A stretch of 64,000 nt of DNA from Escherichia coli (GCF_044324875.1 NZ_CP172185.1); one strand, 5' to 3'; counted from the first letter of the stretch, positions 1-63,880 are shown. Notes: generated by a model not told the origin, from the letters alone. Made by a program: numbers and translations.

Positions 1-53
1 CATCATAACTCACCAAACAACCAGTCACCAGTTAAGATACATCAAAAAAAAAT

Positions 54-91
54 TACCCATGGGTATTTACTTTTTGGATACCCATGGGTAT
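54..91. repeat. Two copies of the perfect palindrome TACCCATGGGTA (54-65 and 79-90; second extends to ATACCCATGGGTAT 78-91), centres 25 bp apart, each followed by a T-run
   Basis: Read directly from sequence; dyad symmetry typical of a dimeric DNA-binding protein operator. Confidence 0.6.
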
Positions 92-283
92 ACTTTTTTT
101 CATACCAACCCACCCCGCCCCACAGAACGCAGGGCAATACTTCGAGTTACCAGGCAGTGGTCAGGGGTTAAGTAGCCAGCCCGAGGCGTATGAACATGAC
201 GGCAGGGTTTAACTTTAACTATGCAGCAGGTTTTTGTTCCGCTACCCCGGCGTTAAGGGGAAACAGCACTGAGAGAAATCAGT

Positions 284-502
284 ATGCAGAAGCGAGAACC
301 CGTCATCATCTCGCCAGACTATACCGATGATGAACTTTATGAGTGGATGCGCCGGAAAATTCAGGCTGCGCAGGACCTGAAGTGGGCCAATGAAGCCAGG
401 GCTAAGGAGGCTGAAAATCTGTCAGCTCTGGAGCAGGATATCACCAGGCTGGAAAAAGCAGCGGCATTAAGCATTGCCAGAATGATTACATACCCGCGTT
501 AA
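284..502 (+). CDS. Hypothetical small prophage protein (72 aa), predicted helical/coiled-coil
   Basis: ORF with GAGA-type RBS upstream, co-oriented with prophage early genes; no recognised family. Confidence 0.45.
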   Translation: MQKREPVIISPDYTDDELYEWMRRKIQAAQDLKWANEARAKEAENLSALEQDITRLEKAAALSIARMITYPR

Positions 503-946
503 CAGCTAATCAACAAGGCCAGGGTTGGTAATTAATGACTTCTCCACGGGTGAGGTGGAGTGCGTGCGCCGGACACAGACTGGTTAACGTCGCCTGGAGG
601 CACCAGGCACCGCATCAACAAAGTTCACTTCGGTGATGAAAGGTAAGAGAAAATGTTGAATGTAGCTATTGAAAACCAGTACGGGTGGAATTATAGTGCA
701 CCTGCACCTCATAAAGCGGGTGCCGGGATTGCTACCCCGACGTTCACTAACGCGCATAACCGCGCCCAGGCGGTTTTTTTATGCGTAATGCACAGCCACA
801 TTCAGATTATGGTGGGGCGTGCAGGGCAGCCGCAAGGCTGGCCGGGTTCGTTAGTGACCGGTTGTAGCAACCCTGTACGTCTCACCACCCATGAGATTGC
901 TACCTCCGGTGGTGAGTTAATCAAATTCACTAACGAGGCTGCCATC

Positions 947-1501
947 ATGGCTACTATCCCTACCCTTTCTCACCCTGACATAACCATCAAAAACGGTCGC
1001 GCTGTCACTACGTCTATTGCGATCGCAGAGTTCTTTGGCAAGCGCCATGAACGAGTGCTGGATAAAATTCGCAATCTGGACTGTTCAGCAAAATTCACTG
1101 AGCACAATTTTGTGTCGAGCAAATACACCGACTCAACCGGGCGCAAACTCCCTATGTACCAAATCACCAAAAACGGCTTCGTTTTCCTGGTGATGGGCTT
1201 CACGGGCAAAAAGGCCGCTGCATTCAAGGAAGCCTACATTGCCGAGTTCGACCGCATGGAGGAAGAACTGCGCCGGAATAACACCACACCCGCTGACAAA
1301 ATAATCCCGGGTGATGGCCGCACCCTGGTTATCCGCTTCGACGAACACGGCTACATCAAATTCACCGAAACCGTTCCTGATGGCGCACTGGTCTGTACTC
1401 TGGATACTTTCCGTTTTTATCTGGAAAAGCAGGGATGGACTCTCATAAACCGGGGCGCAATTAAAAATATGACCGTCGAGCAGTTGCTGAGTATTAAATA
1501 G
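947..1501 (+). CDS. Phage regulatory protein, Rha family (about 184 aa)
   Basis: Motif TTSIAIAEFFGKRHERVLDKIRNL typical of the Rha N-terminal domain; GAGG RBS before ATG 947; the track ORF 653-1501 is probably over-extended upstream. Confidence 0.7.
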   Translation: MATIPTLSHPDITIKNGRAVTTSIAIAEFFGKRHERVLDKIRNLDCSAKFTEHNFVSSKYTDSTGRKLPMYQITKNGFVFLVMGFTGKKAAAFKEAYIAEFDRMEEELRRNNTTPADKIIPGDGRTLVIRFDEHGYIKFTETVPDGALVCTLDTFRFYLEKQGWTLINRGAIKNMTVEQLLSIK

Positions 1502-1546
1502 TTTTCTGGAATTTCCTTCATATCACAAATTATTAAGGAGATTATT

Positions 1547-1768
1547 ATGATTGCTCATCACTTCGGAACCGATGAAATACCACGCCAGTGCGTCACTCCC
1601 GGCGATTACGTTATTTACGAAGGCCGGACATATATCGCCTCGGCAAACAATATCGAAAAGCAAAAACTTTATATCCGTGATTTCACTACAAAAACATGCA
1701 TTACTGACCGCATGATTAAAGTCTTCCTCGGTCGTGATGGTTTACCTGTAAAGGCGGTGGCATGGTGA
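1547..1768 (+). CDS. Hypothetical small prophage protein (73 aa)
   Basis: Strong RBS AAGGAG 8 nt before ATG; no recognised family. Confidence 0.5.
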
Positions 1769-3990
1769 GCTGTAATAAATAACTGACCCAATACGACATT
1801 CAGCTTAATAAATACATAAGGGTCGATTCTTATATGCCAGCAATGGCAGGGATTCGCACAACCTTAAAACAGCAATGAGGTTTATCAATGAGCACTGATA
1901 AAGAAACTTTTGCGCTATATTGCGAAGCTAAAAATGACAAAGTCAGAAAACGCCTTGGGATTAAAGGTGGTTTTTACTGGACTACAGCAAAAAAATTATC
2001 TGTTGCCATCTCCCGCTGCATTACCGCAATGGATGATAACGATTATGATGAAGACGACTTTAAAAAACCTGTTCGCGTCCATTTGCCCGTTGTTGATGAC
2101 CTTCCACCGGAAGGCGTGTTTGATACCGAATTCTGTAACCGGTATGAAAAAGGCGGCGAAGATGGCATCACAATGATATTTATCGCGCCTCCGCCATCCG
2201 CGCAGGACAAACCAGCCAGCACTGACAACACCAATGTTAATGGCGAAGACATGACTGAGATTGAGGAGAATATGCTTCTGCCGGTTTCAGGTCAGATTCT
2301 GCCTGTTCGCTGGCTGGCGCAACACGGCGGCGAAAAACCAGTAACGCACGTTTCGCGGGATGAACTGCGCTCATTACATAACGCACAGGAAGAAAAACTT
2401 CCCGCCGTTACCGCGCTGGCCATCTCAAATAAAGCAGCGCAACTCGAACCGCTGGAGATTCGGGATTTGTACAAACTGGTGCGGGACACTGACAAAGTTT
2501 TTCCCGCTCCCGTAAATTCAGACCTGGGACTGATGACCTCCTTCATCGAAGCATACCTGGACGCTGACTACACTGATCGTGGTCTGCTTACAAAAGAGTG
2601 GATGAAAGGAAATCGTGTTTCTCGCATCAGTCGCACACCATCCGGCGCTAACGCTGGCGGCGGTATTCTTACCGATCGCGGCGAAGGTTTTGTGCATGAT
2701 AATGCGTCAATGGCATTCGATGTTGCTACAGGAAAACTGGCTCGTTCGATGGATGTGGATATTTACAGCATGCATCCTTCACATACCAGACGTGTTAACG
2801 AAATTATCGCAGAAAATGATCCCTGTTTCTCCGTCTTCCTTAAGGCTTTTCTGAACATGCCAGGCGGGATGGATTATTCCCGCGCCATCGTGGTTGCCTC
2901 CGTGAAAGAAGCACCGGTTGGTATAGAGGCTATGCCCCACCGCGTCACCGAATACCTGAATAAAGTGCTGACCGAAACCGATCATGCCAACCCTGATCCG
3001 GAAATCGTGGATATTGCCTGCGGTCGTTCCTCTGCACCAATGCCGCAGCGTGTAACAGAAGAAGGAAAACAGGATGATGAAAAAAAACCGCAACCGTCTG
3101 GCGCAATGGCAGATGAACAGGCAACTACTAAAACAGTGGAACCGGATACAACTGAACATCATCCGGACACGCAGACGCTGGATGCTCGGCCGCAGGTGAA
3201 TTCTGTTGATGCGAAATATCAGAAACTGCGGGCAGAACTCCATGAAGCCCGGAAAAACATTCCGCCCCAAAATCCTGTCGACGAAGACAAATTGCTGGCA
3301 ACCTCTCGCGGAGAATTTGCTGAAGGGATTAGCGACCAGAATGATCCGAAATGGGTGAAGGGGATTGAAACCCGCGATTCTGTGAACCAGAATCAGCAAG
3401 AAACGGAACAGAACGACCAGAAAGCGGAACAAAACAGCCCAAATGTGCAACGAAAAGAGCCAAAAGCGAAACAATCCGAACCAGTAGCGCAACAGGAACC
3501 GGAAAAAGTCTGCACCGTCTGCGGTCAGAGCGGTGTCGACAACTGTCCTGATTGTGGCGTGGTGATGGGCGACGCAACATACCAGGAAATGTTCGATGAA
3601 GAGAATCAGCCTGAAGTTCAGGAAAATGATCCAGAGGAAATGGAAGGCTCTGCGCATCAGAACAAGGAGAACTCTGGCGGCAATCAGCATCATGCCAGCG
3701 ATAGTGAAACTGGCGAGACGGCAAATCCCTTAATTAAGATAACCAGTCATCACAAATATAAGTCCACAAGCAAAACGTGGTATCACCTGATGATCGACCT
3801 TGAAACAATGGGAACCAACACCAATGCACCCATAGTAGTTATTGGTGCGGTTTTCTTCGACCCGGAAACAGGGGAAATCGGGCCGGTATTTTATATCGTT
3901 ATCAGCCTGACTGACGCAATGAATACAGGGGCTGTTTGAACCGCCCCGGGAATCCTGGAGACTAAACTCCCTGAGAAAGAGGTAAACAGA

Positions 3991-4317
3991 ATGACTAAAA
4001 ATACTCGTTTTTCCCCCGAAGTCCGTCAGAGGGCGATTCGTATGGTTCTGGAAAGTCAGGGCGAATATGACTCACAGTGGGCGGCAATTTGTTCCATTGC
4101 CCCAAAGATTGGCTGTACACCGGAGACTCTGCGTGTCTGGGTACGCCAGCATGAGCGGGATACCGGAGGCGGTGATGGCGGGCTCACCACCGCTGAACGT
4201 CAGCGTCTGAAAGAGCTGGAACGTGAAAATCGTGAACTGCGCCGCAGTAACGATATCCTTCGCCAGGCTTCCGCTTATTTTGCGAAGGCGGAGTTCGACC
4301 GCCTCTGGAAAAAGTGA
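3991..4317 (+). CDS. IS629 transposase OrfA (108 aa)
   Basis: Recognised IS3-family OrfA sequence; stop overlaps orfB start in ATGA. Confidence 0.9.
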
Positions 4318-5204
4318 TGCCACTGCTGGATAAGCTGCGTAAGCTGTACGGGGTCGGACCGGTATGCAGTGAACTACATATTGCCCCGTCAACGTATTAC
4401 CACTGTCAGCAACAGCGACATCATCCGGATAAACGCAGTGCCCGTGCGCAGCGCGATGACTGGCTGAAGAAAGAGATACTGCGCGTATACGATGGGAATC
4501 ATCAGGTATACGGTGTGCGTAAAGTCTGGCGTCAGTTGTTACGGGAAGGAATCAGGGTAGCCAGATGTACAGTGGCGCGCCTCATGGCGGTTATGGGACT
4601 TGCCGGTGTTCTCCGGGGTAAAAAGGTCCGCACTACCGTCAGCCGGAAAGCCGTTGCCGCAGGCGACCGCGTAAACCGTCAGTTTGTGGCAGAACGTCCT
4701 GACCAGTTGTGGGTGGCTGATTTTACTTACGTCAGCACATGGCAGGGGGTCGTCTATGTGGCGTTCATCATTGATGTGTTTGCCGGATACATCGTGGGGT
4801 GGCGGGTCTCATCGTCTATGGAAACGACATTCGTGCTGGATGCTCTGGAGCAGGCGTTATGGGCCCGTCGACCGTCCGGCACAGTCCATCACAGTGATAA
4901 AGGTTCTCAGTATGTATCGCTGGCCTACACACAGCGGCTTAAGGAAGCCGGATTACTGGCATCAACAGGAAGTACTGGTGACTCGTATGACAACGCGATG
5001 GCGGAGAGCATCAATGGCCTTTACAAAGCGGAGGTAATACACCGTAAGAGCTGGAAAAACCGGACAGAAGTGGAGCTGGCCACACTCACGTGGGTGGACT
5101 GGTATAACAATCGACGATTGCTGGAAAGGCTGGGCCATATCCCACCGGCAGAAGCAGAAAAAGCTTATTATGCTTCCATCGGAAACGATGATCTGGCAGC
5201 CTGA
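4314..5204 (+). CDS. IS629 transposase OrfB (296 aa, DDE integrase-like catalytic domain)
   Basis: IS3-family OrfB; overlaps orfA by 4 nt. Confidence 0.9.
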
Positions 5205-51626: not shown

Positions 51627-53270
51627 TTAGCGAATGTTAATCAGCGCATCAAAAATCGCGTTTGCCGTCTGCAGAACCTGCGCATTCGCGAGGTAATACT
51701 GCTGAAAACGTTGCAGATTTCCGTACTCCTCATCGAGATTGACACCGGAAATCGACTGCTGCTGATTGGAAAGCTGCGTCACCACATTACCTTGCGTGGT
51801 GCTACTGGTTTTCAACGTCGCGGTTTTATTACCGATATCACTCACTAACGAGGCATAAGCGTCGTTAAAGGATTTCGCACCGCCCACCGTTTTACTGTTG
51901 CTTTGCAGATCGAGCAGGGCCTGACCGTTGCGGTTGTCGCTATCACCCGCATCTTCTGCGCTCGCCATGGCGATTTTCGCTTCGTCGGTGATTAATACAT
52001 CCATGTTGACGATGGCGTCACTTACCGGTTTCAGTGTGAAGCTGTCGTTAACGGCAGGCGTTCCTGTTAACGTCAACTCCAGACCATCAAATGCCACTTT
52101 ACCGTTGGCATCCGGCGTCACCGTAAAAGTGGTATTACTGGCAAGGCGGGTGACCTGCCACTGATTATTATCGAACGAGATTTTGTAATCTGTCGCCAGT
52201 ACCGCGGAGGCATCAGTTACCGTTGCACCGATCGCAACGTCACCTTTGTTTTTCGTGTTTTGCAGAACCGCGGGCTTACCGATAGCAAAGAAATCTTCAC
52301 CAGCATCGCCGTTAGCATCAAATCCGGCTTTGTGTTGGGTGTTGAAAGCCTCGGCAAATGCCAGCGCCAGTTGTCCAAGCGTATTACGCGTCTGGTCAAG
52401 ATCCTGAGAACGGAATGTCAGAATGCCGCCCAGTGACCCGGAATTCAGTAATTTCTCCGGGATCTCAATATTGCCTGCCGTCCCATCAACATAAGCGACA
52501 GTCGTACGAGAAGGGTCGGCGCTGGAAGGAACTGCCGCAAGTTGCCGCGCCGTACTTCCCTGAACCAGTGAGTAGCCATTGGCCATCGTGATATTATAAG
52601 TGCCACCATCCTGAACGCTGACTTCTACGCCAACAATCTGGTTTAATTCGCTCACCAGTTGATCGCGTTGATCCAGCAGATTGTTAGGTGACGCCCCTGC
52701 CCCCACGCCTGTCAGGCGGGAGATTTGATCGTTCAGGCTGGCGATTTGTTTAGCGTAATTGTTGATCTGATCAACGCTGGCACCTATCGCGATATTGACC
52801 TGTTTGTCCTGGTCGCGCAGATATTGATCGGTGGTTTTAAACTGATTCACCAACCCTTCTGATTTCCCAATCAGCGCCTGGCGCGCTGCCGGGTCTTCCG
52901 CGTTACTCACCAGCGTTTGCAGGCTGGTGAAGAAATCCTGCATCTGTATTGCCAGCGAAGAGGTACTGGTGGAGAGCATATTGTCGATTTTCGACATCTG
53001 CTCATAGCGGGCAGTCAGGCCGCTACTTTGCGTCTGCGCCGCACGTAACTGGTTGGTAATAAACGCATCATACTCACGCTGCACACCAGAAACGTAGACG
53101 CCATTGCCAACCCAGCCGCCAGCGCCCAACGTGCTATTGGCCTGCGTCATAATAGTGGTTTGGCGGGTATATCCGGCAACGTTATAGCTGGAGATATTAT
53201 TACTTGCCGTATTTAACGCCGCCTGGGCCGCGTTCAGTCCGCTCATGGCGTTATTGATCAAGCTGGACAT
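51627..53270 (-). CDS. flgK: Flagellar hook-associated protein 1 FlgK
   Basis: 547-aa ORF recognised as FlgK. Confidence 0.95.
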   Translation of the reverse strand: MSSLINNAMSGLNAAQAALNTASNNISSYNVAGYTRQTTIMTQANSTLGAGGWVGNGVYVSGVQREYDAFITNQLRAAQTQSSGLTARYEQMSKIDNMLSTSTSSLAIQMQDFFTSLQTLVSNAEDPAARQALIGKSEGLVNQFKTTDQYLRDQDKQVNIAIGASVDQINNYAKQIASLNDQISRLTGVGAGASPNNLLDQRDQLVSELNQIVGVEVSVQDGGTYNITMANGYSLVQGSTARQLAAVPSSADPSRTTVAYVDGTAGNIEIPEKLLNSGSLGGILTFRSQDLDQTRNTLGQLALAFAEAFNTQHKAGFDANGDAGEDFFAIGKPAVLQNTKNKGDVAIGATVTDASAVLATDYKISFDNNQWQVTRLASNTTFTVTPDANGKVAFDGLELTLTGTPAVNDSFTLKPVSDAIVNMDVLITDEAKIAMASAEDAGDSDNRNGQALLDLQSNSKTVGGAKSFNDAYASLVSDIGNKTATLKTSSTTQGNVVTQLSNQQQSISGVNLDEEYGNLQRFQQYYLANAQVLQTANAIFDALINIR

Positions 53271-62235: not shown

Positions 62236-63858
<1,623 letters not shown>

Positions 63859-63880
63859 CTACCGCCAGATGTTACAGGGT

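Follow-up and report, generated by a model that had tools for sequence, protein, structure and literature searches.

RNAs of the C4 family (Rfam RF01695; P1/P7 c4, P4 CI) are characterised by RNase P processing out of a longer transcript and by repression in trans. In the immI operon of P1/P7 (a1 b1 - c4 - a2 b2 - icd - ant), for which the P1-like phage D6 stands in our comparison, the a' and b' segments of this RNA are complementary to sites both upstream and downstream of it, and b2 lies over the ribosome-binding site (RBS) of the first gene. P4 has the order PLE - seqA leader - CI RNA - seqC - kil, with a nested eta; its 214-aa ORF (8812-8168, minus strand) has its start upstream of PLE, extends across leader and CI, and shares its end with the 65-aa Kil MATTLTPSHPEF. 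This ORF and Kil are the nested genes eta and kil of Forti et al. (1999), whose work is said to have defined eta genetically as a gene of P4 nested with kil. The P4 CI RNA is a termination factor that acts via seqA and seqC (PMC4825925), and in 2023 the Rfam C4 and isrK models were reported to detect relatives of CI and seqA, with CI lying within a Bro-network gene (PMC10111431).

The third system is the isrK - orf45 (STnc1160) - anrP locus of Gifsy-1, where the IsrK sRNA has a promoter, a terminator and partial read-through (PMC4825925) and where Hershko-Shalev et al. described a processed STnc1160/orf45' RNA of ~80 nt. Translation of orf45 was shown experimentally, and the authors attributed the action of IsrK to a change in how the long mRNA folds around the orf45 RBS rather than to a processed C4 being titrated; constitutive STnc1160 failed to relieve IsrK toxicity (PMC4825925). 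The same paper compares the Gifsy-1 locus with P4 CI and leaves P1 c4 uncited, and a 2025 review lists IsrK and c4 as unrelated entries (PMC12197685). In our Rfam searches, however, the isrK, c4-a1b1 (48.1 bits, above threshold) and C4 (69 bits) models fill the isrK-orf45 interval of Gifsy-1, and because of the C4 match STnc1160/orf45' is, on sequence grounds, a C4 homologue. The Gifsy-1 residues mutated in PMC4825925, G28/G31 in IsrK and C162/C159 in orf45 (pairs G28-C162 and G31-C159), lie within a1 and a'. Judged by their sequences, P1 c4, P4 CI and Salmonella IsrK/STnc1160, usually described apart, are one family.

We analysed a 64,000-nt stretch of Escherichia coli DNA (GCF_044324875.1, NZ_CP172185.1; hereafter the window), which contains a further case of this already known cassette type. 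Current understanding is little changed by it, because the parts and their logic have been worked out in P1, P4 and Gifsy-1.

Parts and position of the cassette

The original prediction treated positions 503-946 as one long leader upstream of rha. That outline holds for about 579-946, a conserved cassette, and fails for 503-578, a context-specific spacer after ydfC. In about 22 other distinct contexts the identity to the window is 92-98% from ~579, upstream of which the sequences are unalignable, and only about 579-975 is shared with them. The features of the region are the following.

284-502, YdfC ORF, upstream of the cassette
579-652, plus strand, conserved left flank of the cassette, with no promoter or terminator match and no Rfam match
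653-1501, plus strand, read-through ORF of 282 aa ('Ash-Rha' in PGAP), counterpart of P4 eta
669-697, plus strand, sigma-70 promoter-like site (-35 TTGAAA at 669-674, 17-nt spacer, -10 TATAGT at 692-697)
704-780, plus strand, IsrK-type leader sRNA (Rfam RF01394), corresponding to the P4 seqA region and the P1 a1/b1 region
805-892, plus strand, C4/CI-type antisense RNA (Rfam RF01695)
809-811, plus strand, ATG inside the C4 5' end, equal by alignment numbering to the first AUG (+107) of Gifsy-1 orf45
881-916, plus strand, alternative helix between GGTGGTGAG (908-916) and the 3' side of the C4 basal stem (881-889)
896-938, plus strand, downstream target sites a2 (ATTGCTAC, 896-903) and b2 (TCACTAACGA, 927-936)
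947-1501, plus strand, nested rha gene of 184 aa (Pfam Phage_pRha)
1547-1768, Kil ORF, downstream of rha

By comparison with annotated E. coli relatives, the cassette sits between ydfC and kil-recE-xis-int of a Rac/Qin-like prophage. Its identity as a P4/P1-type RNA immunity cassette is in our view practically certain, and it is highly probable that this cassette, at about 579-975, belongs to a lambdoid prophage of Rac/Qin-like type and lies in its early-left operon (ydfC-rha-kil-recE). An upstream promoter-like site (TTTACT-17-TATACT, 66-94) is directed at ydfC-rha-kil-recE; its -35 is bracketed and its -10 overlapped by two perfect 12-bp palindromes TACCCATGGGTA at 54-65 and 79-90, which are probably the operators of the early-left promoter. 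The terminator scan found no intrinsic terminator between this site and ATG 653. A structured RNA in 503-703 was considered and rejected on its unremarkable fold (z = -0.77), and the Rfam search of that segment found no DicF-like RNA and no other family. MicroRNA matches at 35-107 were below the Rfam threshold and reflect the palindrome, and a scan of 1-3000 for tRNA and tmRNA returned none. The window opens with CATCAT, probably the start of a divergent gene.

The internal promoter-like site at 669-697 scored 10 of 12 matches in the promoter scan and ends 7 nt before 704. By sequence it is a strong site with a predicted start near 704, and is the counterpart of P_isrK and of P4 PLE; 704/705 is precisely where similarity to other phages sets in. 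Across the window, Gifsy-1, D6, mEp460 and SfV the -10 positions T.A.A..T do not vary, and P4 carries a TATAGT -10 box at the place equivalent to 692-697. The isrK model (RF01394) matches 704-780 over its full length with 62.7 bits against a gathering score of 50, both in the search of 1-3000 and in that of the whole window. Within this RNA, 704-709 pairs with 718-723, and 724-727 with 736-739, holding a1 (ATTGCTAC, 728-735) in the loop; b1 (TCACTAACG) follows at 744-752. The intrinsic terminator of IsrK (758-780) consists of a stem (758-763/770-775) and T7 at 774-780, GGCGGTTTTTTT at 769-780 being the 3' half of the terminator hairpin. It is among the 7 sites that the terminator scan placed in 2 kb, against 2.3 expected, and the fold of 740-790 reaches -16.4 kcal/mol (z = -2.1). 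The terminator-like element originally predicted at about 765-780 is thus real, and because the isrK match spans 704-780 it is the 3' end of an IsrK-type sRNA, which was one of the options then offered (a phage sRNA). With the terminator accounted for in this way, nothing similar to an N/Q-type antitermination site was found, and the companion suggestion of an antitermination-controlled terminator falls away.

The characters of the isrK family are present in the promoter at 669-697 and the Rho-independent terminator at 758-780; a separate orf45 with an AUGA stop/start overlap is absent, the frame of ATG 809 entering rha without a stop. The AUGA arrangement occurs in 1 of 48 unique cores that have an identifiable downstream start. 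The c4-a1b1 model (RF03163) reaches 18.9 bits at 691-743, below its gathering score of 46.7; a1 and b1 segments complementary to C4 do exist in the window, and their pairing co-varies. P4 resembles the window in the order of its parts, with the isrK model on the seqA leader (8692-8615) and the C4 model on the CI RNA (8507-8420, 74.9 bits), and differs from it in having a leader-CI spacer of 107 nt, as opposed to 24 nt here.

C4, its target sites and the control of rha

The second RNA was not seen in the original prediction, which nevertheless suspected that the leader gates rha. The C4 model (RF01695) matches 805-892 with 78.2 bits against a gathering score of 45, covering model positions 1-87 of 87, in the search of 1-3000 and again in that of the whole window. 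Together with the isrK score, this match puts the region well beyond chance. Its minimum free energy structure (-47.8 kcal/mol, z = -4.64) equals the Rfam family structure, with a 17-bp basal stem (810-826/871-887) and hairpins at 827-840 and 841-862. The loop of the latter holds b' (CGUUAGUGA, 849-857), and a' (GUAGCAA, 864-870) forms a single-stranded joint. Exact complements of about 7-10 nt to these segments lie inside IsrK, where a1 matches a' and b1 matches b', and again downstream at 896-903 and 927-936, where b2 overlaps the GAGG (935-938) of the rha Shine-Dalgarno sequence, so that C4 is indeed complementary to the rha RBS. The alternative helix 881-889/908-916 has 9 perfect pairs in the window; a2 then sits in a hairpin loop, and the helix is in competition with the fold of C4. 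Further a/b-like sites in the window are limited to isolated, unpaired single copies, a b-site 9-mer (TCACTAACG) at 51842-51850 and an a-site 9-mer (ATTGCTACC) at 63855-63863, which are probably chance matches.

Conservation among related prophages, which the original prediction had proposed to examine, was followed by a pattern scan of viral contigs. It yielded 120 loci with 49 distinct cassette sequences; annotated phages, Gifsy-1, D6 and P4 were added to these relatives, and the covariation alignment comprised 52 sequences. Intramolecular helices were paired in 97.6% of cells, with 17 pairs changed on both sides; the three C4 helices alone were 99.6-100% paired (11 pairs changed on both sides), and the IsrK hairpins covary too. 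The loop-target pairings behave in the same way: pairing reaches 100% in a1:a' and 94.9% in b1:b' (both sides changed in 13 of their 16 pairs) and 94.4% in b2:b' (both sides changed in 8 of 10). For the alternative helix the figure is 98.3%, and 5 of its 9 pairs changed on both sides, including in P4 and D6. Slid controls gave 33-52%. Because a 3-nt alignment gap spoils the column count for a2:a' (44-85% paired), that pairing was judged from duplex energies. These favour cognate over non-cognate partners by 5-7.5 kcal/mol for b'-b1, b'-b2 and a'-a1 (for b2:b', -17.3 versus -9.8 kcal/mol), and by ~2.4 kcal/mol for a'-a2.

The relatives carry 17 b' and 9 a' alleles in 23 combinations, and their cassettes precede unrelated cargo, namely Rha, Bro-N, Ant, an epsilon-like derepression protein (P88), Icd-Ant (D6) and small ORFs. 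The 23 loop combinations and the varied cargo suggest that specificity loops and cargo are shuffled as modules. In the lysogen the cassette probably keeps a Rha-type regulator and the toxic kil silent, and it probably also provides an RNA immunity that is sequence-specific. Two short loops would determine this specificity, and at least 17 b' and 9 a' variants of them are shuffled among relatives.

By analogy with P1/P7 c4, P4 CI and Gifsy-1 isrK, we propose that the internal promoter at 669-697 would be constitutively active in the lysogen. Most transcripts would end at 780 as IsrK, and the read-through RNA would be processed to a C4 of ~80 nt, which would pair with a2 and b2 in cis and in trans and block ribosome entry at ATG 947. 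The untranslated rha RNA would then probably be cut short by Rho, leaving rha and the toxic downstream kil silent, and a superinfecting phage with the same a/b specificity would be blocked likewise. Abundant IsrK, acting as an a1/b1 decoy, might titrate C4 and turn rha on, as IsrK does for anrP in Gifsy-1. Speaking against this scheme are the low c4-a1b1 score of the window and, from Gifsy-1, the published refolding account of IsrK and the failure of constitutive STnc1160 to relieve its toxicity. That C4 occludes rha translation is, from the pairing pattern and from these analogies, a conclusion we hold with considerable confidence. Partial read-through of the terminator at 780 is expected by homology with Gifsy-1 (PMC4825925), and to that extent the attenuator of the original prediction is loosely true; the region as a whole is no simple attenuator.

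A different emphasis is that C4 chiefly promotes termination, as P4 CI does at timm and as has been proposed for STnc1160 at the IsrK terminator, with 758-780 a regulated attenuator and the translational block secondary. The role of CI as a termination factor via seqA and seqC speaks for this (PMC4825925), as does the position of b1, only 6 nt upstream of the terminator stem, and IsrK in trans did raise transcription of a Gifsy-1 fusion 8-fold; the translational effect in Gifsy-1, 139-fold, was however far larger (PMC4825925). In every variant b2 overlaps the Shine-Dalgarno sequence and co-varies with b', an arrangement that favours occlusion of translation as the primary event. In P1 and P4, moreover, termination is said to follow from blocked translation, a view ascribed to Biere (1992) and Forti (1999). 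Termination and translational occlusion are not mutually exclusive, and we regard a chiefly terminating C4 as rather unlikely.

The frame from ATG 653 and the nested rha gene

As the original prediction held, Rha homology and a proper RBS begin at 947. Phage_pRha (PF09669) matches aa 119-204 of the 282-aa ORF, which lie after 947 (106.4 bits, cut-off 29.9, E = 1.2e-30), and ATG 947 is preceded by ACGAGG-N8. The Rha part is grouped by PHROG with anti-repressor and Rha families. The start sequence GAGGCTGCCATCATGGCTAC is conserved across the family, and the cassette extends over the first ~10 rha codons (MATIPTLSHP), which match the beginnings of D6 Icd and P4 Kil. Annotation as a 282-aa "Rha family" CDS conceals an internal promoter and two curated RNA genes; the start that is really regulated is 947.

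The 282-aa ORF was also correctly placed. It occupies 653-1501 within a frame open from 647 to 1501, and its ATG lies 16 nt upstream of the -35 box behind a weak Shine-Dalgarno sequence (AAGG/AAGAG); it starts upstream of the internal promoter, crosses IsrK and C4 and shares its frame with ATG 947. ATG 809 is in this frame too, so that the orf45 equivalent is fused to rha. PGAP annotates an equivalent 849-nt CDS in the relative L125, and PHROG 995 covers the entire 282 aa. Pfam PF10554 (Phage_ASH) matches aa 14-108 with 71.5 bits (cut-off 26, E = 9e-20), and the codons so matched are exactly the two RNA genes. Column entropies at the three codon positions are 0.48/0.61/0.55 in isrK, 0.52/0.48/0.47 in C4 and 0.66/0.85/0.84 in a2-b2, compared with 0.96/0.72/1.30 in the rha CDS; the leader shows no third-position excess, and therefore no protein-level constraint is present there.

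The original prediction had called the 98 codons upstream of 947 non-genic. This is borne out by their lack of codon periodicity, but not by the behaviour of the frame, which is open from upstream of IsrK to an in-frame downstream ATG in 45 of the 49 distinct cassettes. Stops occupy 0 of 374 distinct site-codon combinations in the 653 frame, compared with 22 of 377 and 19 of 370 in the other frames (P ~7e-10 in a crude test that treats site-codon combinations as independent; part of the signal could be shared ancestry). The bias holds separately in 653-703, in 704-808, in C4 and in the a2-b2 segment. Indels between variants are multiples of three, the ATG distances being 135, 138 or 141 nt. 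Each of the 109 distinct contexts has an in-frame start (ATG in 108, GTG or TTG in one) that precedes the sRNA 5' end by 42 nt or more, which places it before the internal promoter. An open frame as a universal trait was rejected, since stops occur in 6 of 7 additional divergent loci (six added ones and D6). The frame is closed in D6, Gifsy-1, P88, TL-2011b, VT2phi_272, PhiR12_2 and YpM_39, which keep both RNAs above the Rfam gathering scores, and open in 2H10; because of these closures the open frame, and with it any translational bypass, is a subfamily trait.

Within that subfamily the sequences indicate that stop codons are selectively excluded from the 653 frame and that the frame is not accidental. 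Translation from 653 on transcripts arriving from upstream is likely, because the frame is stop-free, an in-frame start always lies upstream and the P4 homologue is eta. BLASTP of the window ORF against the 214-aa eta ORF of P4 gave E = 5e-15, confined to the region of the RNA module. As in P4, the long ORF is in frame with a short gene beginning MAT(T/I)..P(S/T)HPE.

It is proposed that transcripts from the repressor-controlled upstream early promoter would carry ATG 653. As suggested by the stop-free frame and by eta/kil of P4, ribosomes starting there would cross the terminator, C4 and a2/b2 and prevent those structures and pairings from forming. Rha would then be produced in the form of a 282-aa fusion, with the remaining operon genes expressed whatever the state of immunity. 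We give this translational bypass of immunity about an even chance. An extension of it, advanced more tentatively, concerns a large subfamily of the cassettes (the window, mEp460, SfV, ST64B, 2H10 and P4): the 'Ash domain' of Pfam and PHROG annotation may here be no protein domain, but a shadow, free of stops, that two RNA genes cast. The open frame would serve only to let ribosomes that start upstream of the internal promoter cross the IsrK terminator, C4 and its target, which would make early-operon transcripts immune to the phage's own RNA immunity. If true, this would generalise the eta/kil trick of P4 to lambdoid prophages and would explain why the frame is open in cassettes inside a long operon and not in those heading their own operon. 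As a corollary, IsrK-type sRNAs would be a1/b1 decoys for C4, uniting the Gifsy-1, P1 and P4 models.

Against selection on the frame it could be argued that the leader is purely non-coding, the 653 frame is open by accident and rha is translated from 947 only. The good Shine-Dalgarno sequence and ATG at 947 are conserved family-wide while the one at 653 is weak, nothing upstream is conserved in a protein-like way, and many relatives manage without an open frame. An accident would nevertheless have to account for no stop at 374 site-codon combinations against 41 in the other two frames, a bias found in 653-703 alone and in 704-808 alone, as well as for indels in multiples of three and an in-frame start always upstream of the promoter. 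The P4 homologue, furthermore, is reportedly a genetically defined gene, eta. We consider an accidental frame improbable.

Very improbable is the opposite extreme, that 653-1501 encodes a plain two-domain protein (Ash + Rha) and the RNA-family matches are incidental to a conserved CDS: the Phage_ASH and PHROG 995 matches, the calling of the long ORF by PGAP and several phage annotations and the frame being kept open would all fit such a protein, but the leader lacks the third-position excess seen in rha, its substitutions are compensatory for RNA helices and for the three-way loop-target pairing, relatives with stops in the frame retain both RNAs above the gathering scores, Phage_ASH falls in P4 on a discredited ORF over the CI RNA and not on epsilon, and the amino acids of orf45 were noted to be variable (PMC4825925).

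The P4 match just mentioned concerns the historical 'cI ORF137' (locus L128, 8168-8812, minus strand), and P4 epsilon is PF25738. The equation of Ash (PF10554) with P4 epsilon, assumed in at least one preprint that takes PF10554 as the epsilon marker, was rejected accordingly. The Pfam 'Ash protein family' PF10554 appears to be a "protein" family built on translated RNA genes, those of this cassette.

Cargo and neighbouring elements

What follows the cassette differs among the described systems. The nested gene of P4 is the 65-aa Kil, followed by epsilon, whereas in the window a Kil/Icd-like N-terminus is fused to a Rha domain; P4 itself is a satellite, while the host element of the window is a lambdoid prophage operon. 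In D6, where the cassette precedes icd-ant, the MATIPTLSHPD of the window has its match in the N-terminus of Icd (MATIPTPTHSE) and in the start context GGAGGCTGCCAATATGGCTACTATCCC. Unlike the window, D6 has stops that close the frame through the leader and C4, its icd is a separate small ORF coupled to ant in place of one nested ORF, and its cargo is Ant and not a Rha-family protein.

Gifsy-1 shares with the window an AUG inside C4 and an IsrK complementary to the C4 loops. Its orf45, however, is a separate 45-codon ORF that ends in AUGA and has a stop just before its AUG, while the frame of the window is continuous from 653 into rha, and the Gifsy-1 locus adjoins antQ in the late region, as opposed to the early-left operon. 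The Rha of the window and AnrP of Gifsy-1 are unrelated (E = 4.9); homology between them was rejected on this value, and only the cassette is shared, not the cargo. A Gifsy-1 C4 loop, UCGGUGAU, is complementary to AUCACCGGAGG in the anrP Shine-Dalgarno region (locus L127, 34076-34214, minus strand), which is a b2 site. This site is undiscussed in the 2016 IsrK paper, which attributes control to the orf45 RBS (PMC4825925).

Farther along the window, the recE-like exonuclease has 683 aa, compared with 817 aa in the closest E. coli relative, and looks truncated. Directly after this ORF stands an IS3-family insertion sequence (3940-5204) with overlapping ORFs at 3991-4317 and 4314-5204 and an ALIL frameshift pseudoknot at 4272-4388 (Rfam, 116 bits). 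The SraB sRNA on the minus strand (44892-45060) and the 5' UTR element of rne (46921-47257) mark the right-hand portion of the window as E. coli core chromosome.
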